A DNA stretch of 64,000 nucleotides from an uncultured Spirochaetota bacterium (GCA_963734545.1 CAVTHO010000010.1:96001-160000), one strand, 5' to 3'. Shown: positions 26,592 through 53,443, counted from the stretch's first letter. Numbers and translations are program-made. Notes: generated from the sequence alone by a model not told the origin.

Positions 26592-29552
26592 TCAGCCGGA
26601 CAACACGTCGAGGGGGACCCTCGTCTGGCTTTCCCCTGTCCCGTAGACTATCCAGATCCGTCCCTGGAATCCCGGGCTGCTCGCGCAATCGTCTCCGGGC
26701 AAGCCGTCCCGGACGCCGGGAGCCAGATAGAGCATTCCGCTCGTTGCGAAATCCACCGGCAGGTCCCAGTCGTTTCTGTCCGCGAAGATCACGTAGCCGA
26801 AGTTCACCGTTTGAACGGTCGCCGGATCGATCACCGTCAACGTCCAATCTCCGCGGAGCGGGTTTTCGCTCCTGGCAACGGTCACGACTTCTATGCCGCG
26901 CATCACCTCGAATGCGAGCTGCGTCTTGTCAAAGCTCGTCGCGTTCGTGCAATCCGACAGGTCGATCGGGATCATGTCGCCGGTCCGGGGGCCGTTGTCC
27001 GTGACGATCAGGCGGACACCCGGCTCAAGGGGCGCGGCCATTACGGCCAGCTCACAGCTCGCGCCAAGACCCAGCACAACGCCCATCTCGCGCATGACGA
27101 CCGAAAGCAGATCAGGGCGATCCATGGCGTCGGTCCCCTGGCTTGCCCTCAGGGCTGTTCCGAAGGGCTGGAGCGTAAACTCCAGATCGTCAGCCGGGGT
27201 TGGATCGACGAACCAGCCTGTCTGGCCGCCCCAGGGATCCAGCCTCACGCGACGGGCCGCTGCGTCTGTTGATGCAAGATCGTCGCCCAGGGCGGCGATC
27301 TGGAAAGTCACTCCCTCCAACAGCGTCCGAGGATCGGTTCCCGAAGGTCTGAAGGCACTCCACCGGTTGATGGCTTCCGCCACGATGGGGGAAAGCCTTG
27401 CGGCATTGATCGCGAACATGAGCCGCGCACACTGGATCGACGTCCCGGGGAGTTGTACGAGCTCCCCTGCAGCGTCGACTCTCACCACCTCACCCGTGCC
27501 GGGGACCCCGCCGAGGCCGGGCGCTCCGCCGCTGCAGTCGACATTCCCGCTTGTGATCGATCCGCTGTGGCTCGTCAGCGTGACCGCGCCCCCGTTCCCT
27601 CCGTTGATCAGCGGATCAACACCGTCGGTTCCGTTGGCCTGGATGTCGCCCTGGAGGAGCATGTTGCCGGCAGATTCCAGCGACATGTCCCCCGCGTGTG
27701 ACCCGTGTCCGACGCCGACGGTGCTGAGCACGGAACCGGCAGAGAGCGTCAAGGTGGTTCCGGCGTGGATGCCGAGGGTCTTTTCCGGAACCGCTATCGA
27801 AGCCCCGATAACCACGGAGCCCGCCGCGGCAATGTCGACCGAGCCGGTGCTGACGATGACTGCCCCCGTGTTGTCGAATTCCCCGCTCGCAACGGTTATC
27901 CCGCCGTCGGAAATCGTCAGGACCGTGCCGTTCAGATCGATCTTTCCCGATGCATGGAGATCGATATCGTTCTCGACGCTGAGCGCCCCCATGACGACGT
28001 CTCGAGCCGTGGAAACAAGGAGGCCTTCACTCATGATGGCGCTCGCATGGATGTCGTGCGCCGTCGATGAAAGTGACAACTGGCCCATGACAATGGCCGG
28101 CGCGTTCAGGACGATGTCTCCTGCCGCGGCCAGCTCCACACGGGTAAAGCTCGCACCGAGATTCCCCAGACCGCCGTCGAATCGAATCCCTGCGCCGGCG
28201 CTGGCCAGAAAAACGGTGGAATCGTCCGCATCCACGGACATGAACACAGCGCTGCCCTGCGCCTGCACCTGAACGATCCCTTTGACGAGCAGAGGGCTGC
28301 TGATGCTCAGGTCGCCGACGGAAGTCACCGTCAGCCCATCCGGGTCATCGAGAGACAGTCCGCCTCCGGTCACGGGCAGACCGAAGGCGTTTCCCTGGAT
28401 GACGAGCTGATCGGCGCCCGTGCCGGTCTTGATCGTGAGAGACTGCAGGTCCGCGGCAACAAGCCCCGCAGAGCTAATTGTTATCCGGTCATCTCTGTTG
28501 ATCAGAGTGTCATTGAAGCCAGAGTCGATGGTCATGTCGGCGATATTGTAGAAGGTGACGGACTCGAAACTGACACCGTTGATGGTTCCCGAAATGCGGT
28601 TATTGAAGGTGTTGAAATTGCCCGGCACGCCGGCCCCGCCCGGGTTCACGTCGATAATGAGCTCGTCCACGCCGCTGCCGTAGTCCGAGGTGAGAAATAC
28701 ACCAGGGGATTCGCTGATATAGGTGGGTTCAAGGCCTGCCAGAGAAATGGCGCTCGAGCGGGCGCCCTCGCTCAGCAGCATGCGGGCGCCGTCACTGCCC
28801 ATGGGGCTGTAGGAAACAGTTACTGCCGGGTTTCCGTCAAAGGAAAACGAGTCGAAACACCCCACTCCGCCGTCGTAGGAGATCCCGGCCGGCAGCCAGA
28901 AAGGATCCGAGAAGTCCACGGTGAGAAGATCATCCCCATGGTCGCTGCCGATGATCATGACCCCGTCGACTTCCTCCAGAAGGCAGCTCTCCAGGAGCGA
29001 GCCGCTGCGGGTATCGAATAGCCCGAGAGTGCGGGAACCGCTCGTCTCCACACGAAGTGTCAGATCACTTCCGCCATCCGGAGCCGTGTAGGACAGGTAT
29101 GTCAGAGCAGCCAGCGGCGGGGGAGCCGATGCGTGAAGCGCTTCGACCAATTCATCTGCTTTCGTCAGTTGCTCGGGCTCGATCGAAGCGAGCGCGTGCG
29201 ATGTATCCCCGACCACCGTGCCCTGTGACGCAGCGGGCTGCTGCTGCCCGAAGACTTGAGCTTCAGCCGTCAGGTCGCAGTCAACGCCCTGCGCGGGATC
29301 GCTGTCACCGGGCGCCGCAGGCGGACCAGCGGTTTGAGGGGACGGGGCCAGAAGGTCTGGCACGCTCGCTTCCGGGGCATATGAGAAATCGGCGGTCGCG
29401 CCGGCGCGCGTCGTTCCTGCGGTATCAAACACCTGTTCGGCGGCGAGGGCGTCTATCGGGATGGGTCCGGCAGGCTGATCCAGGATGCCGTTGACAGAGA
29501 GGAGGAGTCGAGGCTCCAGGGCCTCCAAAGTAAACTTCCTATCGCTGCCCAT
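26592..29552 (-). CDS. N-terminal part of the giant protein (LEPRxLL motif, 986 aa); probably the same gene as 2..26575, split by a +1 frameshift
   Basis: Starts MGSDRKFTLEALEPRLLLS (LEPRxLL motif at 29496-29519). Gly/Ser-rich beta-helix-like segments and a DLLSVVMREMGVVLG motif. Stops 16 nt before the next frame's ATG, with no clear Shine-Dalgarno there. Confidence 0.88.
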   Translation of the reverse strand: MGSDRKFTLEALEPRLLLSVNGILDQPAGPIPIDALAAEQVFDTAGTTRAGATADFSYAPEASVPDLLAPSPQTAGPPAAPGDSDPAQGVDCDLTAEAQVFGQQQPAASQGTVVGDTSHALASIEPEQLTKADELVEALHASAPPPLAALTYLSYTAPDGGSDLTLRVETSGSRTLGLFDTRSGSLLESCLLEEVDGVMIIGSDHGDDLLTVDFSDPFWLPAGISYDGGVGCFDSFSFDGNPAVTVSYSPMGSDGARMLLSEGARSSAISLAGLEPTYISESPGVFLTSDYGSGVDELIIDVNPGGAGVPGNFNTFNNRISGTINGVSFESVTFYNIADMTIDSGFNDTLINRDDRITISSAGLVAADLQSLTIKTGTGADQLVIQGNAFGLPVTGGGLSLDDPDGLTVTSVGDLSISSPLLVKGIVQVQAQGSAVFMSVDADDSTVFLASAGAGIRFDGGLGNLGASFTRVELAAAGDIVLNAPAIVMGQLSLSSTAHDIHASAIMSEGLLVSTARDVVMGALSVENDIDLHASGKIDLNGTVLTISDGGITVASGEFDNTGAVIVSTGSVDIAAAGSVVIGASIAVPEKTLGIHAGTTLTLSAGSVLSTVGVGHGSHAGDMSLESAGNMLLQGDIQANGTDGVDPLINGGNGGAVTLTSHSGSITSGNVDCSGGAPGLGGVPGTGEVVRVDAAGELVQLPGTSIQCARLMFAINAARLSPIVAEAINRWSAFRPSGTDPRTLLEGVTFQIAALGDDLASTDAAARRVRLDPWGGQTGWFVDPTPADDLEFTLQPFGTALRASQGTDAMDRPDLLSVVMREMGVVLGLGASCELAVMAAPLEPGVRLIVTDNGPRTGDMIPIDLSDCTNATSFDKTQLAFEVMRGIEVVTVARSENPLRGDWTLTVIDPATVQTVNFGYVIFADRNDWDLPVDFATSGMLYLAPGVRDGLPGDDCASSPGFQGRIWIVYGTGESQTRVPLDVLSG

Positions 29553-29686: not shown

Positions 29687-30640
29687 CTATGGGATGGCGG
29701 CGATCCGACCTGCCTCCTCCGACAGGCTCCTCAGGGCGTCACGCAGCTCCGGCGGCTCCTTCACCACGAAGCGCAGGCTCAAGCCCATGAGGTAGCGTGA
29801 CGCGTAGTCCAGGTCATCGATCGGCCAGTCGAATGCCACGCCCTCCGCAATCTTCGTGAGGATCCCCCAGGAGGAGGGGATCCTCCTGCGCAGCCGGGCA
29901 AGCTCCGTTTCGAAAACCACCCTGATCCGCCACCTGGCCCGCGTGTTTTCCAGGTACTCGATGGCATAGGCGCGGAAATCGAACTTTTCGTTCTTGTGAA
30001 AGCGTTCCTCGAGAGGACGGGTCTTTCTCATCCGGTCCAGCCGAAATGTCCGGTAGTCCTCCCGCAGGCGACAGTATCCGACGAGGTACCATCTGCCCCG
30101 CCTGCCGACGAGACCGTACGGCTCCACGACCCTGTGAGTGAGCTGGTCATTCTCCGAGCGATAGGTGATCTGCACGCATTGCCGTGCCTGGATGCTCTCG
30201 CTCAGGAGGATGAGCAGGGAGGCATCGGGCCGGGGCTCGTCCCGGTAGGGCGAGAGAATCGCCAGGGAGGAAATTCCGTTCACGACCTGTCGCGCCCCCT
30301 GGGGCAGGACCCGGGTGATCTTGGAGAGCGCCGCCTCGACAACTGCCGGGGACTGCCCGATCTCCAGCCATGAGCTTCCCAGCAGCCCGAGCACGATGGC
30401 GGCTGCCTCCTCCTCGCTGAACATGAGCGGCGGCAGCTTGTAGCCTGCCCGCAGCCGGTAGCCGCCATACCGGCCGCGTGTCGCCTCGACCGGTATCCCC
30501 ACGTCCTGCAGCTTGGTGACGTATCGGCGCACGGTGCGCACGTCGGTTTCCAGCCGTGCGGCGAGCTCCGGGCCGGTCAGGTTCGGCCGTGATTGCAGGA
30601 GCTCGAGAACCGTCAGGACCCGGCCTGTCGGATGGTACAT
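29687..30640 (-). CDS. YafY-family HTH-WYL transcriptional regulator
   Basis: N-terminal HTH (ELAARLETDVRTVRRYV...GRYGGYRL), LPPLMFSEEEA, and WYL core VEPYGLV...WYLVGYC...RTFRLDR. Confidence 0.95.
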   Translation of the reverse strand: MYHPTGRVLTVLELLQSRPNLTGPELAARLETDVRTVRRYVTKLQDVGIPVEATRGRYGGYRLRAGYKLPPLMFSEEEAAAIVLGLLGSSWLEIGQSPAVVEAALSKITRVLPQGARQVVNGISSLAILSPYRDEPRPDASLLILLSESIQARQCVQITYRSENDQLTHRVVEPYGLVGRRGRWYLVGYCRLREDYRTFRLDRMRKTRPLEERFHKNEKFDFRAYAIEYLENTRARWRIRVVFETELARLRRRIPSSWGILTKIAEGVAFDWPIDDLDYASRYLMGLSLRFVVKEPPELRDALRSLSEEAGRIAAIP

Positions 30641-30980: not shown

Positions 30981-31898
30981 CTATGGGGCGCTATCCCATT
31001 GATCTCCAAGGACTTGATCGATTGCGTACCTGGATATGGCGGCAAGCGGGGGGTGAGTGTTCTGGTAGTAGGGCAGCGCAATTGCTCCGATGGACAGCGC
31101 CCAGCCGCGACCACGAGCCCACATTGCCTCATCGACCGCCAATTCCCGGCGAAATGTCCGCCGGGCCCTGGTGGAGAGGAAATTCCACGCTACCGCCAGG
31201 TCGCATGCGGGATCACCCACGCCCAGACAGCCAAAGTCGATGACGGCACAGAGCCGGCCTCTCCGCGCGAGCAGATTGCCGGTTTGCAGGTCTCCATGGA
31301 TCCAGACGGGTGGACCACTCCATGCAGGTGCCTGGAGTGCGGCTTTCCACGCCGTGATCGCCGCGTCGGCATCGAGCGTGCTGCGAAGCGCCTCGATCGC
31401 CGCTCGCGTCGAAGAGTCCCTCGTTCGCAGCGACACTCCGCGGAAAGAGTTGTGAGGACCGGGGACGGGTCCATCGGCGGTATCAATCCGTCGGAGGGCA
31501 GCAATGAACCCTGCCAGGTCCGTCGCGACCTGGCTCGAATTCGCCATGCTCTCGACGGCAGCGTTCTGGCCCTCGAGCCACCTGTAGACGGACCAGCGCC
31601 AGGGGTAGCCCTCGCCCGGTATCCCCTTCCCGAGCGGCACGGGGACAGCAAGAGGCAGGAGCGGGCCGAGCCTCGGAAGCCACTTGAGCTCCTTGTCCAC
31701 CTGCCCCACGGCCGAGGGTATTCGGGGCAGTCGCACTACCTTGTCGTCTCCGAGACGATAAAGCGCATTATCGGTTCCCGCGGATTGCACGGGCTCGATG
31801 GGAAGGTCCGCCCACTGAGGAAACTGCGCCGCAAGCAGACTGCGCACAAGAGATGGATCGGTGTCCTGCTCGTCAACGTGCATCCTGCCGGGAGGCAT
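30981..31898 (-). CDS. Aminoglycoside phosphotransferase (APH)-family kinase
   Basis: SAGTDNALYRLG, VVRLPR, WIHGDLQTGNLL (Brenner motif), VIDFG, GDPACDL. Confidence 0.93.
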   Translation of the reverse strand: MPPGRMHVDEQDTDPSLVRSLLAAQFPQWADLPIEPVQSAGTDNALYRLGDDKVVRLPRIPSAVGQVDKELKWLPRLGPLLPLAVPVPLGKGIPGEGYPWRWSVYRWLEGQNAAVESMANSSQVATDLAGFIAALRRIDTADGPVPGPHNSFRGVSLRTRDSSTRAAIEALRSTLDADAAITAWKAALQAPAWSGPPVWIHGDLQTGNLLARRGRLCAVIDFGCLGVGDPACDLAVAWNFLSTRARRTFRRELAVDEAMWARGRGWALSIGAIALPYYQNTHPPLAAISRYAIDQVLGDQWDSAP

Positions 31899-31916: not shown

Positions 31917-33278
31917 CTAGGAACCGGCGGTAATCCGCACAGAGATCTCCTTTTCGAAGCGTCCGGTCACCATCAAGACAAGATCATCACCGCGGGTAGC
32001 GCAGGCGATTTCCTCCGGCTGGACTTTCGCGCCGGACACCTGCACGACCGCCTCCGGGCTTTTCCAACCGTTGACGACGAAAACGGGATTGAGCATCGGG
32101 TACTTCGGGGAGGCGGTGAACTCGATCTGCTTCCCCCCCGAGGTGCGCAGGACGTATGCCCTCTCGGAGAATGCGAAACCTTCGTACAGAAGCGGGCCCG
32201 ATGACATCCCGGGGATCGACTTGACGCACTCGTTGCCCGTCAAGACGGTTGCCGGCCGGTACCATGAGTGAGCAAGCTCTCGCAGATGCTCCGTGGGCTT
32301 CTCGGTTGCTCCGACCAGGAAGAGCCACGAAGTCCCGCGGGGAGGCGTCTCAACATGGTACGACGCGGCGATCTTCTGTGACTCCTCGTCCTCCTGCAAG
32401 AGGAAGGGCCGCCAGTCGTAGTTGCAGTCGACAAACGAACTGTGCGTGGCCTGGCGCCCTGCAACGTCGTCTCCCCTTGCGGCGAGGACGAAGTCCTCCG
32501 CGTCCGTGACCGGCCAGTGCTTGTACACATTGCCGATCCCGCTGAAGAGAGTGAAATAGGGATGGTTCCCGCCGCACACTCCGCAGCGGCGGTATGCGAA
32601 GAGCCTCTGGTCCTTGGCAAAAATGACATACGGGCTCGGCCGATCCTTGAAGTTGACTCGCCCGATGTACATGTTCCAGTCCGCAATCTGGGGAAAGGCA
32701 GTGCACAGGGGCTTGAACTCATTGAACTGGATGGGCCAATCGAGGGAAATGCTCTCCCCCTTGTCGTTGGACAGCTCGAACGCCCCCTTGGGGCGCAGCG
32801 TGGAATCCGGCGTCGTCCCTGCCCCGTTGACGATGATCCATTCCAGAACCTGCCACATGTTGGGGTTGCCGCCGTAGCCAGATTCGTCCCCGGGGTATGC
32901 GGTGAGCGTGCGCACGGCCACGCCGTCACGGTACATCAGGTATGTCTCCTCGGCGGTGGTGTTGCCGTGGAAGACCCGGTAGCGCATGTCGGCGCAGGCG
33001 TATTGCCAGCGCACCCTGCCCCGCACGTCGTTGGCCTCGATGATGGAAGCCCGGCTGAACTTGAGCTTCTTGTCCATGATCGGCTCGTAGCAGTGGTTGT
33101 CCTCGGGGCTGTTGGTTTCCAGCCATTCCGGGGTGAACCAGACATCACCGCCCAGGTCGAGGCAGGGCACGTACTGCGCCTTGGACCAGAGGACCAGGCG
33201 GTGCTTCTGGCCGCATTCCACTACTATGGCGTGCCCCGTTGCGCCGGAAAAGCTCAGCTGCGTTTCATAGACTTTCAT
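31917..33278 (-). CDS. Uncharacterised ~450-aa protein, paralogue 4
   Basis: Shares GHAxVVE, FTPEWxExNSP, CYEPIMDK, RVFHGN, GGNPNxWQ, CxxCGxxHP and HWP with the three upstream paralogues. Confidence 0.9.
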   Translation of the reverse strand: MKVYETQLSFSGATGHAIVVECGQKHRLVLWSKAQYVPCLDLGGDVWFTPEWLETNSPEDNHCYEPIMDKKLKFSRASIIEANDVRGRVRWQYACADMRYRVFHGNTTAEETYLMYRDGVAVRTLTAYPGDESGYGGNPNMWQVLEWIIVNGAGTTPDSTLRPKGAFELSNDKGESISLDWPIQFNEFKPLCTAFPQIADWNMYIGRVNFKDRPSPYVIFAKDQRLFAYRRCGVCGGNHPYFTLFSGIGNVYKHWPVTDAEDFVLAARGDDVAGRQATHSSFVDCNYDWRPFLLQEDEESQKIAASYHVETPPRGTSWLFLVGATEKPTEHLRELAHSWYRPATVLTGNECVKSIPGMSSGPLLYEGFAFSERAYVLRTSGGKQIEFTASPKYPMLNPVFVVNGWKSPEAVVQVSGAKVQPEEIACATRGDDLVLMVTGRFEKEISVRITAGS

Positions 33279-33309
33279 GGACGTTCACTCCCTTTCCGTT
33301 GGCGGGTCC

Positions 33310-34005
33310 TCAGCGCTTGGCGAATCGATAGTACCGGGGATAGTCCTTCATCAGGAGGTAGAGCGGCTCCTCGTCCTCCTCGATCGTGGGAAACCTGCCC
33401 ACCTGCTCATGGAAGCGGTTGTCCGTGTTGTCGTCATTGCACACCGACACCTCCCCCACAAGGACTTTCGCCCCGACGCCCCAGAACTTGTGGTACATGC
33501 CCTGGGTGAGGGTGATGCTCTCCCCCGGTTCCAGAACTACCGTCTCCCCGGCAGGGACGGCCCGGCTCACGCCGTCCATGCTGACGGTCACCGGCGTGTG
33601 CGCGAAGTCTCCCGTCGCGCTGCTGTTGTACAACTGGATTGCGAGCTTCCCGCCTCCGCGGTTGATGATGTCTTCCATCTTTTTCCAGTGGAAGTGCATG
33701 GGCGTCACCTGGTTCACGTCGACGATCAGGAGCTTCTCCGCGTAGATCTTGCCCTTGCCGTTCTTCAAGCTCAGGTGGCTTCCGTTGCGGATCGTGAACA
33801 GGAAGAGGCCTCGGCGCTGGAATTCCCCGGAACCCCAGTCCGTGATGTCCCACCCCATGTCCATATCGGAGATTTCGCGAGCCTCCGCCCCTTTTCCGCG
33901 CCAATCCTGCGGCGACCAGTACGCAAACGGCGGAAGGTAGAAGTGATTCGCCCTGGCGAACGCGTCGCCTTCCCGCATTATCCCGTTGATCTCTGATCTC
34001 TTCAT
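33310..34005 (-). CDS. D-lyxose/D-mannose-family sugar isomerase (cupin)
   Basis: MKRSEIN...LPPFAYWSP, GWDITDWG, LFTIRNG, YAEK, QVTPMHFHWKKMEDIINRGGG, PGESITL, GEVSxxNDDxTDNRF. Confidence 0.93.
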   Translation of the reverse strand: MKRSEINGIMREGDAFARANHFYLPPFAYWSPQDWRGKGAEAREISDMDMGWDITDWGSGEFQRRGLFLFTIRNGSHLSLKNGKGKIYAEKLLIVDVNQVTPMHFHWKKMEDIINRGGGKLAIQLYNSSATGDFAHTPVTVSMDGVSRAVPAGETVVLEPGESITLTQGMYHKFWGVGAKVLVGEVSVCNDDNTDNRFHEQVGRFPTIEEDEEPLYLLMKDYPRYYRFAKR

Positions 34006-34062
34006 TCCATCAGCTCCATTCCCGCGGTCACCGGCATCCGTTCGCCCGTTCCCGCATGCAGT

Positions 34063-35412
34063 TCATTTCCCGTAGAAACCGACGCTCGTCCTGCTCGACC
34101 ACGTCCCGTCAATCCACACCACGAGGTCCCGGCCGCTGATCTGCGCCGCGTAGGCGCCCGGGCTCACATCTGTCCCGTTGACCTTCACGCGGATGTCCTC
34201 CGGTGCGGAGGTCCAGTTCATCAGGCGGAAAGCCGGGTTCACGGCCGGGACCGTCGGATCCAGCGAAAACTCGACGCGGTCCTCCTCGTCATGCTGGCGG
34301 AACGCGTAGGCCCGAAGGGAGTAGTCGAACCCCTCGAAGATGACACGGCCTCTGCGCGGGTCTCCCTTTTCCGCGGGGCGGACGATCGTCACGGCGGCCG
34401 GCCGGCGCCAGGACATGGTGAGCCGGTCGAGCTCCGCCGGGTCGGACTTCTCCGGGACGGCTCCCACGAGCATGTACCAGGTGGTTCCCGGAAAGGGAGT
34501 GGGGACGAAATCGTCGTCGCTCGTCCGCCAGGCGTAGTTGCAGTTCATGAAGCAGGTGTGCGTGGTGATCTTGCCCACCTGGTCCAGCGCGAGGGACCCG
34601 AGGATGAAATCCTCCCTCTCTGTCCCCGGCCAGTGGGAGTAGATGGGATCGCCTTCCTGCCGGCCGAACACCTTCATGAACGGGTGATCCTTTCCGCACT
34701 TCGCGCAGCGGATGTAGGGAAACAGCGCCTGGCTTTTCGGGATGATCGTGAACGGACTGGGAGTTCCCCGCAGGCCGACGGTCCCGATATAGTTGCTCCA
34801 TCCGGCCAACTGTGGGAAATGATCGCAGATCGGACCGGGTACAGCGGGAAGCGGCCAGGATACGTTCACCGACTCCCCCTCGCCGCTTCGCAGCATCAAC
34901 GCCTCGGGCGCTCGAATGCAGTCCGTCGGCTTCGTTCCGGCGGCGTTGATGATGATGTATTCCTCGACCTGCCAGAAGTTGGCATTCCCCCCGTGGTTGC
35001 TCGCGGTCCCCGGCCACAGCACCACTTCCCGCACGGCCACCCCGTCCGGGTAGATCGTGTAGATTTCCTCCGCCGTGGTGTTCCCGTGGAAGACCTTGTA
35101 CCGCATGTCGTTCAACGCGTAGCGCCACTTGATCCTGGCGCGCGCCGGCCCGGACTCGAGGATCTCCACGCTGCTCCACCGCAGCCGCTTGTCCATGATC
35201 GGCTCGTAGCATTCCTCATCGTTGGGGCTGTTGACTTCGCACCATTCGGGCGTGAACATCACCCCGTTGCCGAGGTCCACACACCCGACGTACTGCGCCT
35301 TGTCCCAGAAGACGAATCGCCAGGCCTTGCCGAACTCCACCACGACCGCATGTCCCCTGGCGCCGGAAAACTCGAATTGGGTCTCGAACGCCCTCACAAC
35401 AGGTCCGCTCAT
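34063..35412 (-). CDS. Uncharacterised ~450-aa protein, paralogue 3 (449 aa)
   Basis: True start MSGPVVRAFETQ at 35412, overlapping the upstream stop (ATGA); the longer 883-aa track ORF is an out-of-frame extension over paralogue 2; same motifs. Confidence 0.9.
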   Translation of the reverse strand: MSGPVVRAFETQFEFSGARGHAVVVEFGKAWRFVFWDKAQYVGCVDLGNGVMFTPEWCEVNSPNDEECYEPIMDKRLRWSSVEILESGPARARIKWRYALNDMRYKVFHGNTTAEEIYTIYPDGVAVREVVLWPGTASNHGGNANFWQVEEYIIINAAGTKPTDCIRAPEALMLRSGEGESVNVSWPLPAVPGPICDHFPQLAGWSNYIGTVGLRGTPSPFTIIPKSQALFPYIRCAKCGKDHPFMKVFGRQEGDPIYSHWPGTEREDFILGSLALDQVGKITTHTCFMNCNYAWRTSDDDFVPTPFPGTTWYMLVGAVPEKSDPAELDRLTMSWRRPAAVTIVRPAEKGDPRRGRVIFEGFDYSLRAYAFRQHDEEDRVEFSLDPTVPAVNPAFRLMNWTSAPEDIRVKVNGTDVSPGAYAAQISGRDLVVWIDGTWSSRTSVGFYGK

Positions 35413-36803
35413 GTGACGCTCCCTTCTGAGCCGCGCGAGATGATCCCCCGGTCCGCGAGCTCGAGCGTGACCTTCGAGTCGAAGGATCCCGCAAGCCAGA
35501 GAACCAGCTCGTGCCCGCTCACCTGGGCGCAATAGGCGTCCGGCGGCAGCACGTGCCCGTCCCGGCGGACCGCGAGCCGCTCCGCGGGCGTGTGCCACCC
35601 CTCGACGACGACCACCGGATCGAGCACGGCGGCGCCTCCGGGGTGGAAGACCGCCCGCACGCCGTCCTCCGAGCTGTTCTGACGGAACGTGTAGGCGCGC
35701 CGGGGGAAGTCGTACCCCTCGTAGACGAGCCTGCCGCTGCGGGGATCGCCCCGCTCGCCGGGTCCGCGCACGATCTCCACGGCCGCGGGGTTGCGGTAGG
35801 AGCGCACGACCCGGTCCAGCTCCGCCCCGTCGGCGCCCTCGGCCACTGCCCCGACGAGGATGTACCAGGAAGTTCCCGGGTCCGGCGTGGCCACGTAGTC
35901 CTCGTCCTTCCACCGCATGGAGTAGTTGGCGTCGACGAACGAGGTGTGCGTGGCGACTTTGCCGATGGCATCCCCGGCGGCCACCCACTCGAGGAAGTCC
36001 TCCATGTCGGTGACCGGCCAGTGCTGGTAGATGTTGATCAGGTCCTTGCCGGGGAAGAGGGTCATCGGGGGATGGTTCTTCCCGCATGACGTGCAGGGGA
36101 CGAACGGAAACAGCCTCTGGCTCTTGCAGAAAGCGGCGAAGGGGTTCGGCACGCCGGCAAGCTCCACCTTCCCGATGTAGTTCTGCCAGTCCCCGATCTG
36201 CGGAAAGTGCGTGCACAGGGGAGAGAACCAGTCGGGCGGAAGCGGCCAGGGGATCTTGAGCATTCCGCCGTTGCCGTCCCGCATGGTGAAGGCCGATGGA
36301 GTCTTGAGGAAATCCAGCGGGCTCGTCCCTGCCGCGTTGATCAGGATCCATTCCTGCATCTGCCAGAAGTTCGGGTTGCCGCCGTGGGCGTTCTCGGTGC
36401 CCGGCCACAGCGACACCTCCCGCACGGCGATGCCGTCGGGATAGATCGTGTAGATCTCCTCCGCCCGCGAGTTGCCGTGGAAGACGCGGTAACGCATGTC
36501 GGCAAGGGCGTAGCTCCATTTCACCCGGGCCCGGGCCGGTCCTGATTCCAGGATCTGGATTCTGCTCCACCGCAGTTTCTTGTCCATGATGGGCTCGTAG
36601 CAATGGTTGTCGTTGGGGCTGTTGGTCTCGCACCACTCGGGGGTGAACAGCACGCCCTTGCCCAGGTCCACGCAGCCCACATACTGCGCCCCGCTCCAGA
36701 ACACGAACCGCCACGGCTTGTCGAATTCGACGACGACGGCGTGCCCTTTCCTCCCGGAGAACTCGAAATCGGTCTCACGCGCATGCACACTCGGGTAGCT
36801 CAT
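35409..36803 (-). CDS. Uncharacterised ~450-aa protein, paralogue 2 (464 aa)
   Basis: GAGGAGG ribosome-binding site before MSYPSVHARE at 36803; same motifs. Confidence 0.9.
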   Translation of the reverse strand: MSYPSVHARETDFEFSGRKGHAVVVEFDKPWRFVFWSGAQYVGCVDLGKGVLFTPEWCETNSPNDNHCYEPIMDKKLRWSRIQILESGPARARVKWSYALADMRYRVFHGNSRAEEIYTIYPDGIAVREVSLWPGTENAHGGNPNFWQMQEWILINAAGTSPLDFLKTPSAFTMRDGNGGMLKIPWPLPPDWFSPLCTHFPQIGDWQNYIGKVELAGVPNPFAAFCKSQRLFPFVPCTSCGKNHPPMTLFPGKDLINIYQHWPVTDMEDFLEWVAAGDAIGKVATHTSFVDANYSMRWKDEDYVATPDPGTSWYILVGAVAEGADGAELDRVVRSYRNPAAVEIVRGPGERGDPRSGRLVYEGYDFPRRAYTFRQNSSEDGVRAVFHPGGAAVLDPVVVVEGWHTPAERLAVRRDGHVLPPDAYCAQVSGHELVLWLAGSFDSKVTLELADRGIISRGSEGSVT

Positions 36804-36813
36804 ATCCCCCTCC

Positions 36814-38191
36814 TCATCCGTTGAAGCCAAAGGTCGTTGGCCGTCGGAAGGTCCCCTCCATCCACACCACGAGGTCCCTTCCGCAGTTCTGCGCGCGGAA
36901 GGTGTCCGCCGCCCGGGCCTCTCCCCCCACCGTCACCCGCGTGGCCGAGGCCGGGGCGGTCCACCCGTTGACGAGGAACACGGGATTGATCACGGGAATT
37001 CCCTCCATTCGGGCTCAGGGAGACCTCGACACGGTTCTGCCGATCGTTCTGGCGGAATGTGTAGGTCCGGATGGAGTAGTCATAACCTTCCACGACCACC
37101 CGTCCCCGGTGCGGATCCCCCTTGTCCGACGGGTCACGCACCACCACTGCGTCTGCCGGGAACCGGTAGGAGAGCGCCAGCGGATCGAGCTCCGCGCCAT
37201 CCGTTCCGTGGGAAGTGGCCCCGATCAGGAGATACCAGGTGGTGCCGGGGAACGGCTGCTGCACGAAGTCGCTCTCCTTGCGCCGCATGGAAAAGTTGCA
37301 GTCGATGAAGCAGGAATGGGTCGGGACCGTCCCCACTTCCCCGCCGCCGCTGACCCAGCCGATGAAATCCTCCTTCTCGTACGCCGGCCAGTGGACATAG
37401 GAGTTGTGGATCCCGGTCTCGTTGTGATGATCGATTCCCTGGAACAGGGTGAAATAGGGGTGGTTGCCGCCGCACGCGCTGCAGGGCATGAACGGGAAGA
37501 GCTTCTGGCTCTTGCAGATGACGGCGAACGGATTCGGGATGCTCATCATGTTGATCTTGCCGATGAAATTGGGCCAGTCCTTGATCTGCGGGAAACGGTC
37601 GCACAGCGGCCCTGCCTTTTCGGTGGGGATGGGCCAGGGAAAGCTGAACGAGCCGCCGAGGCCGTTCCTCATCGTGAAGGCGGCTTCCCGGTTCAGAACC
37701 TGCGAGGGGGTGGAGCCCTTCGCGTTGATCATGTACCACTCGTGCACCTGCCAGAAGTTCGTGTTGCCGCCGTGGTTGCTGGCGTCCCCCGGCCACAGCA
37801 CGATCTCGCGGACCGCCACCCCGTCGGGGTAGATTGTGTATGTCTCTTCCGCCCGCGAGTTGCCGTGGAACACACGGTATTGGATGTCGGCCAGCGAATA
37901 GCTCCAGCGGATTCGCGCGCGGGCGGGGCCTGATTCCAGGATCTGAATCCGGGCGTAGCGCAGCTGCTTGTCCATCATGGGCTCGTAGCATTCCTCGTCG
38001 TTGGGGCTGTTCTCCTCGCACCACTGGGGCGTGAACATCACCTCGTCGCTCAGCTGCACGGTGCCGGCGTACTGGGACTGCGCCCAGAACACGAACCGCC
38101 ACGGCTTGCCGAACTCGACCACAACCGCGTGATCCTTCTTGCCGGAGAACTCGAACTGCGTCTCATACGCATGAACGGTCGGTACATTCAT
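36814..38191 (-). CDS. Uncharacterised ~450-aa protein, paralogue 1; +1 frameshift near 37001-37003
   Basis: Homology to the other paralogues continues in the 36814..37008 frame (IPVINPVFLVNGW...DLVVWMEGTF). Removing one G from the minus-strand GGG run gives ...SPNGGIPVINP. Confidence 0.85.
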
Positions 38192-38221: not shown

Positions 38222-39392
38222 CTACCGATAGCGGCCGTAGGTCTGCGCGACCTCCACCATCTTGAAGATGTTCGCCTCCGGGGTATCCCTCCCGCACTGG
38301 TCTCCCGTCGACAGCACGAACCCTCCCCCATCGGCACAGGCGTCGATCAGCCGCTTGGCCTCCTCTCCGACCTGGTACGGCGTGGCGCGCAGCATGAAGT
38401 CGAAGGTGTTGAGATTGCCCTTGAGACACACCCGGCGGCCGAATCGCTTCTTGAAACCGGCGATGTCCACGTCTCCGCCGGGCTTCCCTTCCAGGGGCTC
38501 GATGACGTTCACGTCCGACTCTTCGGCCACCAGCTCGGCGATAGCCGCTGACTTCCCGCAGACATGGACGTGGGAGATGATGCCGGCCTCCTTGCAGAGG
38601 GCGCTCACCGTTCGAATGAACGGCAAGTCATATTTACGGAAGTACTCCAGGCTGCTCACGCTCAGGCTCGAGGCCGATCCGCCCAGCCACACCTCGTCCG
38701 GCTTCGCCGCGAGGCCGGCCTTCACCTTCCCGACCGCGTACGCGCTGTACCAGTCCATCACCTCCTGGATGTACGCCTCGTCGTCGACGTAATCAAAGAA
38801 GATGGTGTTGTAGTTGCCGTCGCGCTGGCCGAACCACCAGTCCTGGGGAAGCGGAAGGATGAACGCGTACACCCCGAGATCGCCGATGGCGCCGGCGTTC
38901 GAGAACTGGGAGCTCCATCTCCAGGATCCCGGCTCTCCCAGGACGGACCGCAACCGGGGCCAGTCACGCCTCAAGTCCTTGATGGGCTTTTCCAGCTCCC
39001 AGGGGGGCTCGTCCGTGAAATAGCGCGTGGCCTCGGACAACTCGCCCACGGGCGTCTGCACGCGCGAGTGCTTGATCTTCCCGCCCTCCGGGCAGGACGC
39101 TGATTTCGGAGCCCCACGCGGGCCGGTCATCCGGAACCAGCTCCGGCAGCGAGCCGTAGATGTACATCCCGTCGAAGCCGTAGTACCGGACCGCCTCGAC
39201 GTATGCCCGGGCCACGCTCGCGGAGGTGTAGCCGGAATGCGGAAGGCCATCGAGGTACATCTCGTCGAACGGGCGCCCGCTGAGTCGCACCGGCATCATG
39301 TTGGACATGTCCGGGGACACGGCGACGTGGTCCGCTTCCGTGCAGGAATAGGCCGCGAGCATGCGCGTCCGCGCTGTCCACGCTTCCGCCAT
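38222..39392 (-). CDS. Uroporphyrinogen decarboxylase / MtaA-like superfamily protein; +1 frameshift near 39090-39092
   Basis: N-terminus RMLAAY...DHVAVSP; the second frame has TPVGEL, EKPIKD, HVHVCGK, CLKGNL, GGGFVLSTGDQCGRDTPEANI. Removing one C restores ...VLPEGGKIK. Confidence 0.85.
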
Positions 39393-39398
39393 GAATGC

Positions 39399-40235
39399 CT
39401 ACCCTTTCAACGCGCCGGCCATGATTCCCCGGACGAACTGCTTCTGGAAGATGATGTAGGCGATGACCGGCGGAATGGTCGCTGCCGCGAGCCCCGCCAT
39501 CTGCAGGCCCCAGTTCGTTATGTAGCGGCTGTTGAGGAAAAGCACGCCGAGGGGGATCGTGTACATCGACTGCTTCTGCATGTAGACCAGGGGATACATG
39601 AACTCGTTGTAGATCCACATGGTGTAGAAAATGGCGATCGTGGCCATGGAAGGACCGGAGAGCGGCACAAAGAGTTTCCGGAAAACCTGCCAGTGGCTGG
39701 CGCCGTCGATCCGCGCCGCGTCCAGCAGGGACTTCGGGACCGATTCGAAGAAATTCCGCAGAACCAGGACACCGAAGGCAGACCAGCTGAGGTAGGTCAG
39801 GATCAGCGCGGGGTAGCTCGAGAGGAGGTGCAGAGTGGAGATGAGCTGGTAGCCCGAGATGATGAGCGCCTGGGGCGGGACCATGAATCCGAGGAGGACG
39901 AAGATGTAGAGGGCCGTCTTGCCCCGGAAGCGAAGGGTGGCAAAGGCATAGGCCTCCAGGGCGCACAGCCCGAGGAGGCCCGCAACGGACACCGCGGTGA
40001 CGAGGATGCTGTTGAGGAAGTACCTGCCCATGCCGGCTTTCAGAAAGACGATCTGGAAGTTGCCCAGGTACAGCGTCTTGGGAAGGCCGAAGATGCTCGC
40101 GAAGATGTCCGCGCTCGGCTTGAAGGAGCTGTAGACCATCCAGACAACCGGGTACAGGACGATCACCGCGATGATCAGGAGGAAGGGGTAGGTAGCCGCC
40201 GTCAGGAATACTTTGTTCCAGGTCCTGCTGCTCAT
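39399..40235 (-). CDS. Carbohydrate ABC transporter permease (MalG-like)
   Basis: Hydrophobic helices, SSFK, YFLNS, EAA loop VPKSLLDAARIDGAS, FQKQFVRGIMAGALKG. Confidence 0.95.
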   Translation of the reverse strand: MSSRTWNKVFLTAATYPFLLIIAVIVLYPVVWMVYSSFKPSADIFASIFGLPKTLYLGNFQIVFLKAGMGRYFLNSILVTAVSVAGLLGLCALEAYAFATLRFRGKTALYIFVLLGFMVPPQALIISGYQLISTLHLLSSYPALILTYLSWSAFGVLVLRNFFESVPKSLLDAARIDGASHWQVFRKLFVPLSGPSMATIAIFYTMWIYNEFMYPLVYMQKQSMYTIPLGVLFLNSRYITNWGLQMAGLAAATIPPVIAYIIFQKQFVRGIMAGALKG

Positions 40236-40251
40236 GGTCGTCTCCCCCGCC

Positions 40252-41169
40252 TCAGACATCGACCTTGGGCTGATACTTCGTCTGGAGGAAGATGATCAGC
40301 ACCGTGATCAGGAGCTGGATGAGAAGAATGGAGCTGCCATAGCCGACCTTGTTCGCCGTGAACGCCTCGAAATACGCCCAGGTGGAAAGCACCTCGCTGG
40401 CGTGGTTGGGCCCGCCGGTGGTCAGCACATAGACGTTCGCGAACAGCTTGAAGCTCTCGATTGCGCCCAGCAGCGCGACCATCCAGTAGGTGGGGGCCAG
40501 CTGCGGGAAGGTGATGTACCAGATGTCCTGGAGCCGGTTGGCCCCGTCGATGTACGCCGCCTCGTGAAGCTCCTGGCTGATCCCGATCAGCCGGGAAACG
40601 AAGAGGAACATGAACAGCCCGAAGCCTCCCCACGCGTCGATCAGGACCAGGACAATGAGGGCCCGGGACGGGCTGCCCAGGAAATCCCCCGCGAGCGAGC
40701 GCAGCCCGATCGCCTTGAGGAATGGATTGATGAACCCGAGGGTCGGGCTCAGTGCCAGCTTGAACGTCACCCCTATGACCACAAGGGAAAGTACGGTCGG
40801 CAGCAGGTAGACGCCGCGCAGAAAGTTGGCGCCCGGTATCCCCTGGTCCAGGATCAGGGCGAGGAGGAGGGCCAGCCCGATCTTGAGCGTCATGTTGCCG
40901 AGGAAGAAGACGAGGTTGTGGACGAACGACCAGAGGAACACCGGATCGTCCTTCACCATGTGACGGAAGTTCTCGAAGCCGACGAAGCGGATCTGCTGGA
41001 AGCTGAAGCCGTTCCAGTCGGTGAAGGACAGGACGAGGGTGCCGACAAGCGGCAGGACAAGGAAACAGACGTAAAAAAGCAGTCCCGGGAAGAGGAACAG
41101 GAAAGCCGGGAGCCGATCTCCATGCCCGAGCAACTGCCCGTGGGTGGGGCTATTCTTTCTGACGTTCAT
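40252..41169 (-). CDS. Carbohydrate ABC transporter permease (MalF-like)
   Basis: SFTDWNG, FVGFENF, EAA loop ISQELHEAAYIDGAN, TTGGP; start chosen at MNVRK (41169). Confidence 0.93.
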   Translation of the reverse strand: MNVRKNSPTHGQLLGHGDRLPAFLFLFPGLLFYVCFLVLPLVGTLVLSFTDWNGFSFQQIRFVGFENFRHMVKDDPVFLWSFVHNLVFFLGNMTLKIGLALLLALILDQGIPGANFLRGVYLLPTVLSLVVIGVTFKLALSPTLGFINPFLKAIGLRSLAGDFLGSPSRALIVLVLIDAWGGFGLFMFLFVSRLIGISQELHEAAYIDGANRLQDIWYITFPQLAPTYWMVALLGAIESFKLFANVYVLTTGGPNHASEVLSTWAYFEAFTANKVGYGSSILLIQLLITVLIIFLQTKYQPKVDV

Positions 41170-41235
41170 GGGTGGGTTTTCTCGACCTCGCGTTCTCGCT
41201 CCATCTCCTCGCTCGGAGGCGGGGACGATGCAAAG

Positions 41236-41269
41236 GGAAGGGGCCGGATACGCCACCCGGCCCGCTTCC
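41236..41269 (-). terminator. Stem-loop downstream of the solute-binding-protein gene (stabiliser or partial terminator)
   Basis: ggaaggggccgg ... ccggcccgcttcc imperfect inverted repeat; no U-tract. Confidence 0.45.
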
Positions 41270-41277: not shown

Positions 41278-42540
41278 CTACTTACGGGCCTCCGCGATGG
41301 AAGCCTGCAGATCGTTGAGGAACTTGTCCCGTGTCAGGCTGCCGGCGAGGAGCGCAACCAGACCGTTGTAGATCTTGTCCTCCCCGACAGACGGGGGCGA
41401 CTCGATCTCGAGCCAGGGCACGGACGCCTTGGCATTCGTGTACACGGTCGCCCAGAGCTTCTTGATGCTCGGGGGCGCCACTTCGGCAATGACTCCCTTG
41501 TAGAGCGCGATGTTGCCGTCCTTCGCCCAGATCACGAACGCTTCGCGGGTTCCCAGCCAGGACAGCACCTTGAGGGCTTCGGCCTTGTGCGCCGCCCTCG
41601 AGGGAACGCCGAAGGTGCAGAGACTCGCGCCGGTAACGTCCGTCTTGTTCTTCGCATTCTTGAAGCGCGGGAATTGCGCGATGCCGACCTCGATTGCCGG
41701 AGGTTCCTTTGCCATGTCAGCGGCCATCCAGGTGCCGGTCTGGAAGAACGGGGACTTCTGGGCATAGAACGCGGCCTGCCCGGTTCCGAAGTCGTCGCTC
41801 GTCATCCCTTCGCTGAAGTAGCCCTTGTTCTTCAGGTTCAGGAAATCATCCGTGGCCAGAACGAAATCCGCATCCGTGAACTTCACGCCATTGCGGGCCC
41901 ACAGCGCGTCGAACACCCTCTGCGCGCCGACACGCTGGGCGAGGAATCCCATCCACCAGTGCATGGCGGGCCAACCGTTGCGCGCGCCGAGAGCGATCGG
42001 GTAGATCCCCTTCTGCTTGAATTTCTCGCAGGCAGCGAGGAAATCCTCGAAGGTGGCGGGGACCGCGATCCCGGCATCCTTCAGCATCTTCACGTTGTAG
42101 TAGAACTGGAAGCCGCCGTGATATGCCATGGGGATTCCGTAGATCTTGCCTTTGTACGCGACCGCGCTTTCGGCAATCGGGAACAGATCGAACTTGTCCT
42201 TCAGCTTGGCCCAGATGTCGGGAATTTCCGTCAACTGGCCCGCCGCGGCGAAGTCCCGGGTCTGCTGGTTGCCTTCCCACTGCAGCAGGTCCGGCGGCTC
42301 GTTTCCGGCGAGGCCGGTTCGGATAACGGTGAAGAAGTCTTCGTTCCCGATGGGCCTGTCCTGGATCTGGATGTTCGGGTTGGCCTTGTTCCAGGCCCCG
42401 ATCAGATCGTCCATGCCTGCCTTCTCACCGCCTGCCGTGAACTCGTGCCACCAGCTCAGGGTTACCTTAGCCTGGCCAAAGGTGACAAGAGACACGAGCA
42501 GGAGCACCAGCACCAATACTCCACGTATAGTCTTTCTCAT
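41278..42540 (-). CDS. Carbohydrate ABC transporter solute-binding protein (family 1)
   Basis: Signal peptide, VTLSWWH, PPDL, GKIYGIP, YYNVKML, FQTGTW; GGAGG ribosome-binding site. Confidence 0.95.
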   Translation of the reverse strand: MRKTIRGVLVLVLLLVSLVTFGQAKVTLSWWHEFTAGGEKAGMDDLIGAWNKANPNIQIQDRPIGNEDFFTVIRTGLAGNEPPDLLQWEGNQQTRDFAAAGQLTEIPDIWAKLKDKFDLFPIAESAVAYKGKIYGIPMAYHGGFQFYYNVKMLKDAGIAVPATFEDFLAACEKFKQKGIYPIALGARNGWPAMHWWMGFLAQRVGAQRVFDALWARNGVKFTDADFVLATDDFLNLKNKGYFSEGMTSDDFGTGQAAFYAQKSPFFQTGTWMAADMAKEPPAIEVGIAQFPRFKNAKNKTDVTGASLCTFGVPSRAAHKAEALKVLSWLGTREAFVIWAKDGNIALYKGVIAEVAPPSIKKLWATVYTNAKASVPWLEIESPPSVGEDKIYNGLVALLAGSLTRDKFLNDLQASIAEARK

Positions 42541-42713: not shown

Positions 42714-43712
42714 ATGGCATCGGTCACAATGCAACACGTTGCTCGTCTTGCGGGGGTTTCGATCTCAACAGTGTCCAGAGTCCTGAGAAACGATGAATCA
42801 GTCGAACCTGACAACCAGGTCAGGGTGCGAAAAGCCATCAAGGAGTCGGGCTACCGGGTAAAGCCGGCGGCAAGGCGGGATGATTCAGATCATCGTTTCG
42901 TCGCTTTGATAGTCCCCGAGATCACCAACCCCTTCTACGCAAGCATCGTGAAAGGCGTCGAAAGGGTCGCGCGGACACACGACTTCGGCGTGATGGTATA
43001 CAACTCCGAGGAAAGCGTCGAAGTCGAGAACCGTAACCTTGCGTCCGTCGTCAAGCAGGGCACGCGCGGACTCATCTATGTATCCTGCGTCGTAGAGCCG
43101 AACGATCTCGTGGAAGAGCTCATCAAAAGCCAATTCCCCCTCGTGTTCCTGGACCGGATCGCGGAGGAGAAAAACACGAACGTCGTTTTCACGGACAACA
43201 TAGAGGGGGCCTACCAGGCGGTGAAATACCTGCTGCAGCTCGGCCACCGACATATCGTGTACGTCGCCGGAACCAAGACTTCCAGCACCGAGCGTGACCG
43301 CTACCTTGGCTACTGCCAGGCCCTGCGGGACGAAGGGATCGCCGTCGATGAGCGGCTCATCGTGAACGGCGAGTACGACATAGACGTTGCCTATGAAGCA
43401 TTGAACGGGCTCCTCAGCCGGGGGGTCGATTTCTCTGCCGTCTTTTCTTCAAACGACCTGATGGCCTTCGGCGTCAAGCAGGCGCTTGAAGAAAACGGCA
43501 AGAAAGTTCCCGACGATGTCTCCATCGTCGGCTACGACGACATCAGCTTCTCGCACACGATTTCGCTCACCGTCATCTCCCAGCCGATCGTGGAAATGGG
43601 AAAAAGCGCCATGACGCTCCTCCTCGACCTCATCCATAACCGGGTCACGCCCCCGCAGAGGATCGTCCACCGGCCGTCGCTCATCATCCGCAGCTCCTGC
43701 AAGAGACGATAG
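42714..43712 (+). CDS. LacI-family transcriptional regulator
   Basis: VTMQHVARLAGVSISTVSRVL HTH; ITNPFY, LGHRHI, NDLMAFG, VPDDVSIVGYDD, LIIRSS. Confidence 0.96.
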   Translation: MASVTMQHVARLAGVSISTVSRVLRNDESVEPDNQVRVRKAIKESGYRVKPAARRDDSDHRFVALIVPEITNPFYASIVKGVERVARTHDFGVMVYNSEESVEVENRNLASVVKQGTRGLIYVSCVVEPNDLVEELIKSQFPLVFLDRIAEEKNTNVVFTDNIEGAYQAVKYLLQLGHRHIVYVAGTKTSSTERDRYLGYCQALRDEGIAVDERLIVNGEYDIDVAYEALNGLLSRGVDFSAVFSSNDLMAFGVKQALEENGKKVPDDVSIVGYDDISFSHTISLTVISQPIVEMGKSAMTLLLDLIHNRVTPPQRIVHRPSLIIRSSCKRR

Positions 43713-45634: not shown

Positions 45635-45669
45635 GGGGAAGCACCCGCGCGGACTTCGTGGAGACCAGC

Positions 45670-48405: not shown

Positions 48406-48428
48406 CGGCAGTGTCGACTCACATGGCA

Positions 48429-48518
48429 AACGAGCAGCATGTCCCGGCCCGGCCCGCCATCGAGAACATCCGCGCCGGGCCCTCCGATCAGGAGATCGTT
48501 TCCGGGACCGCCAAGCAA
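48429..48518 (-). pseudogene. Orphan RTX-repeat fragment (3 nonapeptides)
   Basis: LLGGPGNDLLIGGPGADVLDGGPGRDMLL, with unconvincing flanking translation. Confidence 0.6.
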
Positions 48519-48885
48519 GGCGGTACTTTTCCCTATCGATCCACATTTCACTTCAACTTTTGTGAAGCCGGGCCGACAGGACTCAGCCGACAAAGACCAA
48601 TGCCACACCCGCGCAATGCACCTGTCAATAGAAGCTTCTTCATCGGCCCCATGAGAAGGGCGCCCCTGACGGACCGGATCCCCTCTTCATTTATCCGGCC
48701 CTGCATCAACACGCATGCGGGTGGAGCCTCCCCTGGGAGCGAACTGGCTCCCCAATGCCCGCTTTTTCAGGCTTTTCCCGTCTCGAATGCCTTCGAAGAT
48801 TGACAATGCCTGTGCGAAAAACCACCCTCTCCACGCGAAGGTTGTTGCCCGCAGCTCAACGGGAATGAAAAACAAAGGAGCCTCC

Positions 48886-50421: not shown

Positions 50422-50513
50422 GCAACGGAGCGGACGCCGCGTCCAGCGGTGCGTGAGAGACGCGGCTTCACGCTTGCTCGAGGGAGATCCAAGCGATAAA
50501 GTGGGAATCTGCA

Positions 50514-50818
50514 ATGGACAACCCAGGCAAAGCCGAAAGCCTTTCGCTCCTCATTGTCGACGACGAGGTGCTCACCCGATCCCTGCTCAGGAACTGCCTC
50601 GACTGGGGGAGCCTCGGCATTCGAATCGTCGGAGAGGCGGCAGATGCGGAGGAGGGCTACACTATCGTCAAGGGCCTTCGCCCCGACATGGTGCTGACCG
50701 ATATCCGGATGGGACGGATCGACGGTATCAATTTCGGAGGCACGGTACGCTGGGCATACTCGAACTCGTCATAGCCCGTGATCACGACTACCCGTGTGCG
50801 CGGGAATTCGGCCTTTAC
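50514..50818 (+). pseudogene. Disrupted YesN-like response-regulator receiver domain (first half on +, second half inverted on -)
   Basis: + strand LLIVDDE...DW...VGEAAD...PDMVLTDIRMGRIDGINF; - strand 50818-50741 reads VKAEFPRTRVVVITGYDEFEYAQRTV. Confidence 0.8.
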
Positions 50819-52332: not shown

Positions 52333-52430
52333 CAAGGTTCCTCCCCGCATTCCTATTCATCTGCCGGATCGCACTCCAGTACATCATATTTCTTGTCCCG
52401 CATCACGGTTTTCTTGACCTGAGCCGCACC

Positions 52431-52459
52431 TTGACGCCGAGGTCCGGGCTTTCCATACT
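52431..52459 (+). promoter_or_regulatory. Sigma70-type promoter of the LuxR-type gene
   Basis: TTGACG, 17 bp, CATACT, ending 5 nt before GTG 52465. Confidence 0.6.
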
Positions 52460-52464
52460 GGCAG

Positions 52465-53415: not shown

Positions 53416-53443
53416 CGCGAGCCCGCCCGCCTTTTCCCGAGAA

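Follow-up and report, generated by a model that had tools for sequence, protein, structure and literature searches.

What do the four neighbouring genes at positions 31917-38191 of a 64,000-nucleotide stretch of DNA from an uncultured Spirochaetota bacterium (GCA_963734545.1 CAVTHO010000010.1:96001-160000)—referred to here, at its full length, as the window—encode, and what might their products do in the sugar operon that carries them? An original prediction, made from the sequence alone, described them as paralogues of an unknown protein with a Cys/His motif that might be new cytoplasmic carbohydrate-active enzymes. The four genes (Table 1) are paralogues, and the cytoplasmic proteins of ~450 residues that they encode belong to a family not characterised so far. 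These proteins may be carbohydrate-active enzymes of a new cytoplasmic family, present here as a specificity panel of four members in which a Cys-rich site would bind a metal, a reading to which we would give a probability of roughly 0.45. The placement of the genes beside a sugar importer and a LacI-family regulator, the predicted sugar-binding fold class and the density of invariant polar residues all point in that one direction.

The four open reading frames (ORFs), all on the minus strand as originally described, are mutually 42-59% identical (tblastn E-values from 1e-105 to 1e-174), and no fifth copy was found in the 64-kb window by tblastn. The motifs FTP(E/Q)W.E.NSP, CYEP(I/M)MDK, VFHGN..AEE.Y, GGN.N(F/M)WQ, P(L/I)C..FPQ, CxxCG.(N/D)HP, Y.HWP and TH(S/T)(C/S)F are present in all four, the CxxC element taking the forms CSAC, CTSC, CAKC and CGVC. 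The first motif of the original list is present as well, but its spacing has to be corrected from FSG..HA to FSG...HA, with three residues instead of two between the Gly and the His. Paralogue 4 carries ~12 extra residues inserted after the N..R motif. The N-termini are without a hydrophobic stretch, the conserved first strand beginning at about residue 7, in line with the absence of signal peptides noted earlier. The ATGA coupling of paralogues 2 and 3 (...ACATGAGC...) could be located precisely, the ATG at 35412-35410 overlapping the TGA at 35411-35409. Two details of the earlier description did not survive: the genes are clustered but not contiguous, since a D-lyxose isomerase gene splits paralogue 3 from paralogue 4, and the size of 458 residues given for paralogue 1 requires reading through a frameshift, the actual ORF having 463 residues.

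Concerning the relationship to known families, the searches covered Pfam, NCBIfam, PDB sequences and PDB folds. None of the four paralogues gave a match in Pfam (E up to 0.01) or in NCBIfam, and eight members searched against Pfam at E up to 10 yielded nothing beyond chance. The candidates taken as chance were zf-dskA_traR (two of the eight members, best E 0.016, 13 residues) and DUF7505 (one of the eight) and, with a family profile against PDB sequences, a class C β-lactamase (59-residue match, E 0.0035) and cytochrome oxidase subunit 2 (E 0.71). No catalytic motif of any known enzyme was matched in Pfam, NCBIfam or PDB sequences, and a confident full-length match to a characterised family, looked for in these resources and among PDB folds, was not found; the earlier statement that no catalytic family is recognisable therefore stands. 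Narrow word searches found no publications on this family, although such searches cannot show that the family is unpublished.

A scan of genome contigs gave 56 matching stretches, four of which encode a relative, in three loci. The first (L001), from a metagenome-assembled genome (MAG) titled Spirochaetaceae, carries the four types in the identical order, all of them intact. The second (L002, a Chloroflexia MAG, 21.1 kb covered) has a single copy interrupted by frame breaks towards the C-terminus, and the third (L003, a Halothermotrichaceae MAG, 13.9 kb covered) a single intact copy. Identity to the L001 orthologues is 88% for type a (residues 1-397), 79% for type b, 76% for type c and 73% for type d. 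In the maximum-likelihood tree of ten sequences each window/L001 pair is joined at 100/100 support, the single-copy L002 and L003 forms being placed nearest type b. Because each window paralogue pairs with one L001 gene, the duplications are older than the divergence of the two organisms. Comparison of the window with L001 gave dN/dS ratios of 0.055 (a), 0.077 (b), 0.111 (c) and 0.074 (d), against 0.081 for the lyxose isomerase gene—approximate values, as dS exceeds 1.4 and is near saturation—which indicate that all four copies are under purifying selection and retained as working genes.

The family also extends beyond these loci. An unrestricted search of the ESM Atlas returned only clusters labelled as hypothetical protein; the top three, with 53, 53 and 64 members and scores of 0.96-0.98, have no Pfam family, and the commonest phyla in the top clusters are Verrucomicrobiota and Planctomycetota. 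The 'named' clusters of the Atlas gave no usable match, and tblastn with paralogue 2 found none among 72,556 plasmid records. Judged from the titles of the records and the labels in the Atlas, members occur in Planctomycetota, Verrucomicrobiota, Chloroflexia, Spirochaetaceae and Halothermotrichaceae.

The original prediction had offered two arrangements for the four proteins, a hetero-oligomer and a specificity panel. That they are the subunits of one obligate hetero-oligomeric enzyme is most improbable: the close spacing in one operon, the overlapping stop and start codons (ATGA) between paralogues 2 and 3 and the joint retention of the four types in L001 would suit such an enzyme, but it is disfavoured because L002 and L003 carry a single copy each (within the 21.1 and 13.9 kb covered), which probably works without paralogous partners. 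Furthermore, the full set of invariant motifs occurs in all four types, as expected of four active enzymes and not of catalytic and scaffold subunits, and the isomerase gene separates paralogue 4 from the others. The specificity panel fits better with the old types, the fully supported pairs and the purifying selection. It should also be pointed out that 26 positions are constant within each orthologous pair yet different among at least three of the four types, some of them adjoining invariant motifs, e.g. inside GGN-x-N and after WQ; such a pattern would be expected of diverged specificities, for which it is a weak indication.

Residue conservation was assessed with ten sequences from four organisms, using the numbering of paralogue 3. 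Four cysteines (C68, C196, C236 and C239, the last two forming C236-x-x-C239) and four histidines (H109, H243, H260 and H285) are invariant in all ten, so that the Cys and His residues singled out originally hold throughout this set. Many Trp, Tyr, Asp, Glu, Asn and Arg residues are likewise invariant in 10/10, and altogether ~90 of the 338 positions of the N-domain do not vary across the four distant organisms, many of them charged and polar. The Cys-rich site would hold a metal, most simply zinc. A possible precedent, by analogy only, is provided by the families GH127 and GH146, for which a zinc-coordinated cysteine is described as the catalytic nucleophile in PMC10728902. No match of the paralogues to these two families was found in Pfam, NCBIfam or PDB sequences. 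The catalytic domain of the GH127/GH146 β-L-arabinofuranosidases has, moreover, a different fold, an α/α barrel.

The AlphaFold2 model of full-length paralogue 3, based on an eight-row alignment, has a mean predicted local distance difference test (pLDDT) of 73.6 and a predicted template-modelling score (pTM) of 0.83, the N-domain model (residues 1-338, ten-row alignment) having values of 69.7 and 0.79. The full-length model consists mostly of β-strands with four short helices, in accordance with the β-rich fold proposed earlier, and residues ~340-449 form a confident second β-sandwich (pLDDT ~90). The low-confidence residues of both models are 58-75, 103-109, 137-147 and ~245-303; the conserved motifs map to loops of the N-domain, and the four cysteines lie in or near low-confidence ones. 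Foldseek against the PDB gave galactose-mutarotase-like supersandwich domains as the best matches of both models, i.e. a fold class that usually binds sugars. Both searches found the GH2 β-galactosidase 6sd0 (E 3.5e-7 and 1e-5), 9m0e, GH38 mannosidases and aldose 1-epimerases; LacZ was matched in the N-domain search, whereas the full-length model additionally matched xanthan lyase, heparinase II and, at a weak level, OpgG. Searching the viral library of Foldseek at E up to 0.001 produced one match, with a probability of 0.15, which was judged meaningless. The models thus suggest an N-terminal galactose-mutarotase-like β-supersandwich followed by a C-terminal β-sandwich, which is an assignment to a fold class and not to a family.

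With regard to the individual structural relatives, aldose 1-epimerases (3imh, 1l7k) are likewise free-standing cytoplasmic proteins, built on the supersandwich fold class predicted for the N-domain, and use His and Glu residues on the bound sugar. The N-domain matched 3imh, 1l7k and 3ty1 with probabilities of 0.91-1.00, TM scores of 0.33-0.39 (for 3imh 0.39 whether normalised to the query, TMq, or to the target, TMt) and a root-mean-square deviation of ~11 Å, with ~20% of the model being of low confidence. The paralogues differ, however, in giving no Aldose_epim match in Pfam (none of four at 0.01, none of eight at E up to 10) and in a structural identity of only 8-10%; the epimerases, ~100 residues shorter, are without the C-terminal β-sandwich, the set of four cysteines and these motifs.

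The best structural matches (E down to 3.5e-7, TMq up to 0.43) are the mutarotase-like domains of larger proteins, all carbohydrate-active: GH2 domain 5 (6sd0, 9m0e, LacZ), GH38 (7ufs, Ams1), PL21 heparinase II (3e7j) and PL8 xanthan lyase (1j0m). Here the match spans just one accessory domain of proteins of 740-1180 residues (TMt 0.12-0.19), and the TIM-barrel or α/α-toroid domains, which are the catalytic ones in those glycosidases and lyases, have no counterpart in the paralogues, with their strands from about residue 7. The paralogues cannot be placed in GH2, whose enzymes of ~1000 residues combine a TIM-barrel catalytic domain with sugar-binding and Ig-like domains, being proteins of 449-464 residues, mostly β and without a Pfam match, for which the one-domain match has a TMt of 0.16-0.18; nor in PL8 or PL21, as there is no N-terminal toroid, strands start at residue 7, Pfam gives no match and TMt is 0.16-0.19. 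A two-domain plan similar to that predicted for the paralogues is seen in OpgG and OpgD (GH186), periplasmic proteins with a large supersandwich, catalytic in OpgD, followed by a small β-sandwich. The Foldseek match to 1txk is nevertheless weak (E 2.3e-3, probability 0.54, TMq 0.23), there is no MdoG match in Pfam, OpgG and OpgD are not known to carry the Cys/His motif, and the paralogues have no signal peptide, their N-termini being without a hydrophobic stretch. As sequence or domain architecture sets them apart from aldose 1-epimerase, GH2, PL8/PL21, GH186 and GH127, the paralogues would constitute a new family among the mutarotase-fold proteins of sugar catabolism, which would share only the fold class with the nearest known systems.

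The order of the window operon, on the minus strand, is a gene for an extracellular solute-binding protein (SBP), two permease genes, a UroD-like gene, paralogues 1-3, the lyxose isomerase gene and paralogue 4, the intergenic distances ranging from an 8-nt overlap to 57 nt. The SBP has its nearest solved relatives among proteins that bind oligosaccharides (4g68, E 8.6e-40; the xylo-oligosaccharide-binding 3zkk, E 1.7e-29; the chitin-oligosaccharide-binding 7eho). The isomerase gene matches the D-lyxose isomerase of PDB 3kmh (E 2.4e-56) and reaches 257 bits with NF051472, below the cutoff of 350. In L001 the order is LacI, SBP, permeases, UroD-like gene, types a-c, isomerase and type d, directly followed by the counterpart (15893-18175, 76% identical) of the TIM-barrel/dehydrogenase fusion, which in the window lies on the divergent side. 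L002 has the SBP gene, two permease genes, a DUF455-like gene, the UroD-like gene and the single family copy, with a LacI gene and a GH42 gene ~4-5 kb off on the opposite strand; L003 has a LacI gene, the single family copy, an SBP gene and a permease gene, and then the contig ends. In each of the four loci the family gene thus has genes for a sugar importer and a LacI-family regulator in its neighbourhood, and in the window and L001 that of the lyxose isomerase as well, so the cytoplasmic carbohydrate context assumed originally is well founded. The ten genes of the window operon gave no Pfam match to a recognised glycosidase family; the six with any Pfam match correspond to the SBP, the two permeases, the UroD-like gene and the isomerase, the four paralogues having none. 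Because no operon gene matches a recognised glycosidase family, the paralogues are left as the candidates for splitting the oligosaccharide.

A different role is suggested by the UroD-like gene, located directly upstream of the family member in three of the four loci (window, L001 and L002). Its product matches PF01208 in the C-terminal half only (56.7 bits) and the MtaA/CmuA models with 49 bits, far below their cutoff of 235; SH(V/L)HVCG and GDQCGRDTP are kept in 3/3 loci and are presumably similar to the H-x-C...C motif with which MtaA-type methyltransferases bind zinc. Decarboxylases belong to the UroD superfamily, as do O-, S- and halogen-demethylases, as described in bioRxiv 10.1101/2023.07.31.551370. 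The paralogues could accordingly be sugar-modifying, non-glycosidic enzymes (isomerase, epimerase, dehydratase or substituent-removing), maybe acting together with the UroD-like protein, maybe with an Fe-S cluster, on a modified sugar that may be, for example, methyl-etherified or carboxylated. We regard this as doubtful. Four invariant cysteines are the usual count for a [4Fe-4S] site, and the aldose 1-epimerases, the only fold matches known as free-standing enzymes, act on monosaccharides, both of which would agree with such a role. On the other hand, the UroD-like protein scores poorly in its matches, the ORFs scanned in the four loci included none for a corrinoid protein, and no UroD-like gene was seen in the 13.9 kb of L003, although the contig ends there two genes past the family member. 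In addition, several linkages would suit four specialised paralogues better than one modification, and the operon would be left without an enzyme splitting the imported oligosaccharide. A predicted complex of the L001 type-a protein with the L001 UroD-like protein scored 0.00 in two runs without controls, which speaks neither for nor against binding.

If the four proteins are carbohydrate-active enzymes, the family-1 ABC system of the operon would first import an oligosaccharide, and this, or a substituted sugar, would be taken apart in the cytoplasm by the paralogues. Each of them might handle a different linkage or substituent, so that together they would make up a panel of glycoside-cleaving or sugar-modifying enzymes. 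Zinc in the Cys-rich site could be structural, or could present a cysteine for catalysis as in GH127/GH146, and the released monosaccharides would pass to the isomerase and the TIM-barrel/dehydrogenase fusion. A more specific version, which we consider rather unlikely, has the free-standing mutarotase-like domain as the catalyst with a Cys4/His metal centre, the paralogues as isoenzymes acting on the various linkages or substituents of a single imported oligosaccharide and the UroD-like partner removing a sugar substituent without a corrinoid protein; the cysteine may then be zinc-presented as in GH127, on an unrelated fold.

Several points weigh against an enzymatic panel. The conservation figures, coming from only ten sequences, are optimistic; the Foldseek matches, with TMq of at most 0.43 and identities of 7-12%, are weak in global terms; and the loops with the conserved motifs coincide with the low-confidence parts of both models. 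A recent CAZy family outside Pfam, NCBIfam and the PDB may already hold these proteins, and the frameshifts described below may mean that the operon here is decaying, unless they are assembly errors. Finally, the mutarotase-like domain of large enzymes, GH2 and GH38 among them, usually has an accessory and not a catalytic part, and most of the domains topping the fold searches are of this kind. Together with the lack of any catalytic motif matched to known enzymes, this would be compatible with non-enzymes, i.e. cytoplasmic sugar-binding, sensor or accessory proteins with a carbohydrate-binding β-sandwich and a structural zinc site. Such a role is nevertheless improbable, since a protein that only binds would not usually need as many as the ~90 invariant positions of the N-domain, the genes are under strong selection (dN/dS 0.06-0.11), and they occupy the catabolic positions of an operon in which the LacI gene already provides a likely sensor.

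As for the frameshifts, paralogue 1 contains a one-base insertion near 37001-37005, at about codon 397, in comparison with its intact, 88%-identical L001 orthologue, as a consequence of which the last ~66 residues of the ORF as read are out of frame. The true C-terminus, displaced into another frame, is colinear with L001 (63% identical), contains no stop codon before its own end and stops 10 nt ahead of the ATG of paralogue 2. The UroD-like gene is similarly split into the overlapping frames 38964-39392 and 38222-39250 by a one-base insertion at about 39095-39105 relative to L001, where the orthologue is intact (390 residues), so that two frameshifts fall within ~2.1 kb of one operon. A generally error-rich assembly seems unlikely because the 26.5-kb ORF at 2-26575 is uninterrupted. 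Programmed frameshifting of paralogue 1 was considered and dropped, as the L001 orthologue is in a single frame and the difference is one extra base.

Table 1 Features of the window discussed in the text, in the order of their coordinates
Feature	Positions	Strand	Remarks
Paralogue 4 (type d)	31917-33278	minus	453 aa; most divergent type
D-lyxose/D-mannose isomerase family (cupin)	33310-34005	minus	PF07385, E 2.1e-100; between paralogues 3 and 4
Paralogue 3 (type c)	34063-35412	minus	449 aa; sequence used for modelling
Paralogue 2 (type b)	35409-36803	minus	464 aa counted from its ATG
Paralogue 1 (type a)	36800-38191	minus	463-aa ORF as read; residues 1-397 family-like
Displaced true C-terminus of paralogue 1	36814-37005	minus	63 codons + TGA 36816-36814, other frame
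UroD-superfamily gene	38222-39392	minus	PF01208; directly upstream of paralogue 1
ABC permease 2	39399-40259	minus	PF00528; 70% identical to L001
ABC permease 1	40252-41256	minus	PF00528; 65% identical to L001
Family-1 extracellular solute-binding protein (SBP)	41278-42540	minus	PF01547; first operon gene
LacI-family regulator	42714-43712	plus	divergent; PF00356 + Peripla_BP domains; 70% identical to L001 LacI
Xylose-isomerase-like TIM barrel (AP_endonuc_2)/Zn alcohol dehydrogenase fusion	43793-45634	plus	613 aa; downstream of LacI
GH78 α-L-rhamnosidase	45601-48405		divergent side, after TIM-barrel/Zn-dehydrogenase fusion
GH43 β-xylosidase-like gene	50815-52350	minus
SMP-30/gluconolactonase-like gene	57135-58286
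HpcH/HpaI aldolase	58342-59148
Monosaccharide-type ABC system	59198-63051

The surroundings of the operon can be described more briefly. An APH-family phosphotransferase gene (30981-31898, minus) begins 18 nt after paralogue 4 and is followed by an HTH-WYL-WCX regulator (29687-30640, minus); tblastn with ten L001 proteins gave no counterpart at either position. Further on, a 986-aa ORF without a Pfam match (26592-29552, minus) precedes the single ORF at 2-26575 (minus), of more than 8858 residues, which runs off the window end. In its first and last 2000 residues the only Pfam matches were a weak one to PG_binding_1, close to the N-terminus, and another weak one taken as chance; the product has the appearance of a giant protein that is secreted or located at the surface. 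On the other side, the flank 45601-63998, which also includes a 2-hydroxyacid dehydrogenase gene, appears to be rhamnose- or pentose-related and could encode a non-phosphorylative deoxy-sugar pathway. Between 29500 and 44000, candidate promoters and terminators were no more numerous than in shuffled sequence, and a scan of the window for tRNA genes found none.

With regard to the neighbours in other loci, the DUF455-like gene of L002 (7402-8799, 465 aa) lies between the permease and UroD-like genes and has a sub-threshold match to this ferritin-like family. On the other strand of L002, just beyond the family member, the region 11453-14655 shows weak similarity to ZIP zinc transporters and also encodes a P-type ATPase for heavy metals, which may be a coincidence. 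Upstream of the L001 operon there is a 736-aa right-handed β-helix protein (2180-4390) with a weak match to a GH141 insertion domain, for which tblastn found no counterpart in the window.

Should the four proteins turn out to be only binding or accessory ones, they would be a routine conserved hypothetical of a sugar operon. If they prove to have enzymatic activity, they would found a new family that breaks down an imported oligosaccharide of plant or algal type in the cytoplasm, and would provide a second, unrelated scaffold for sugar chemistry assisted by a metal or a cysteine. The locus with four paralogues, taken together with the single-copy loci, offers a ready comparison for working out their specificity.

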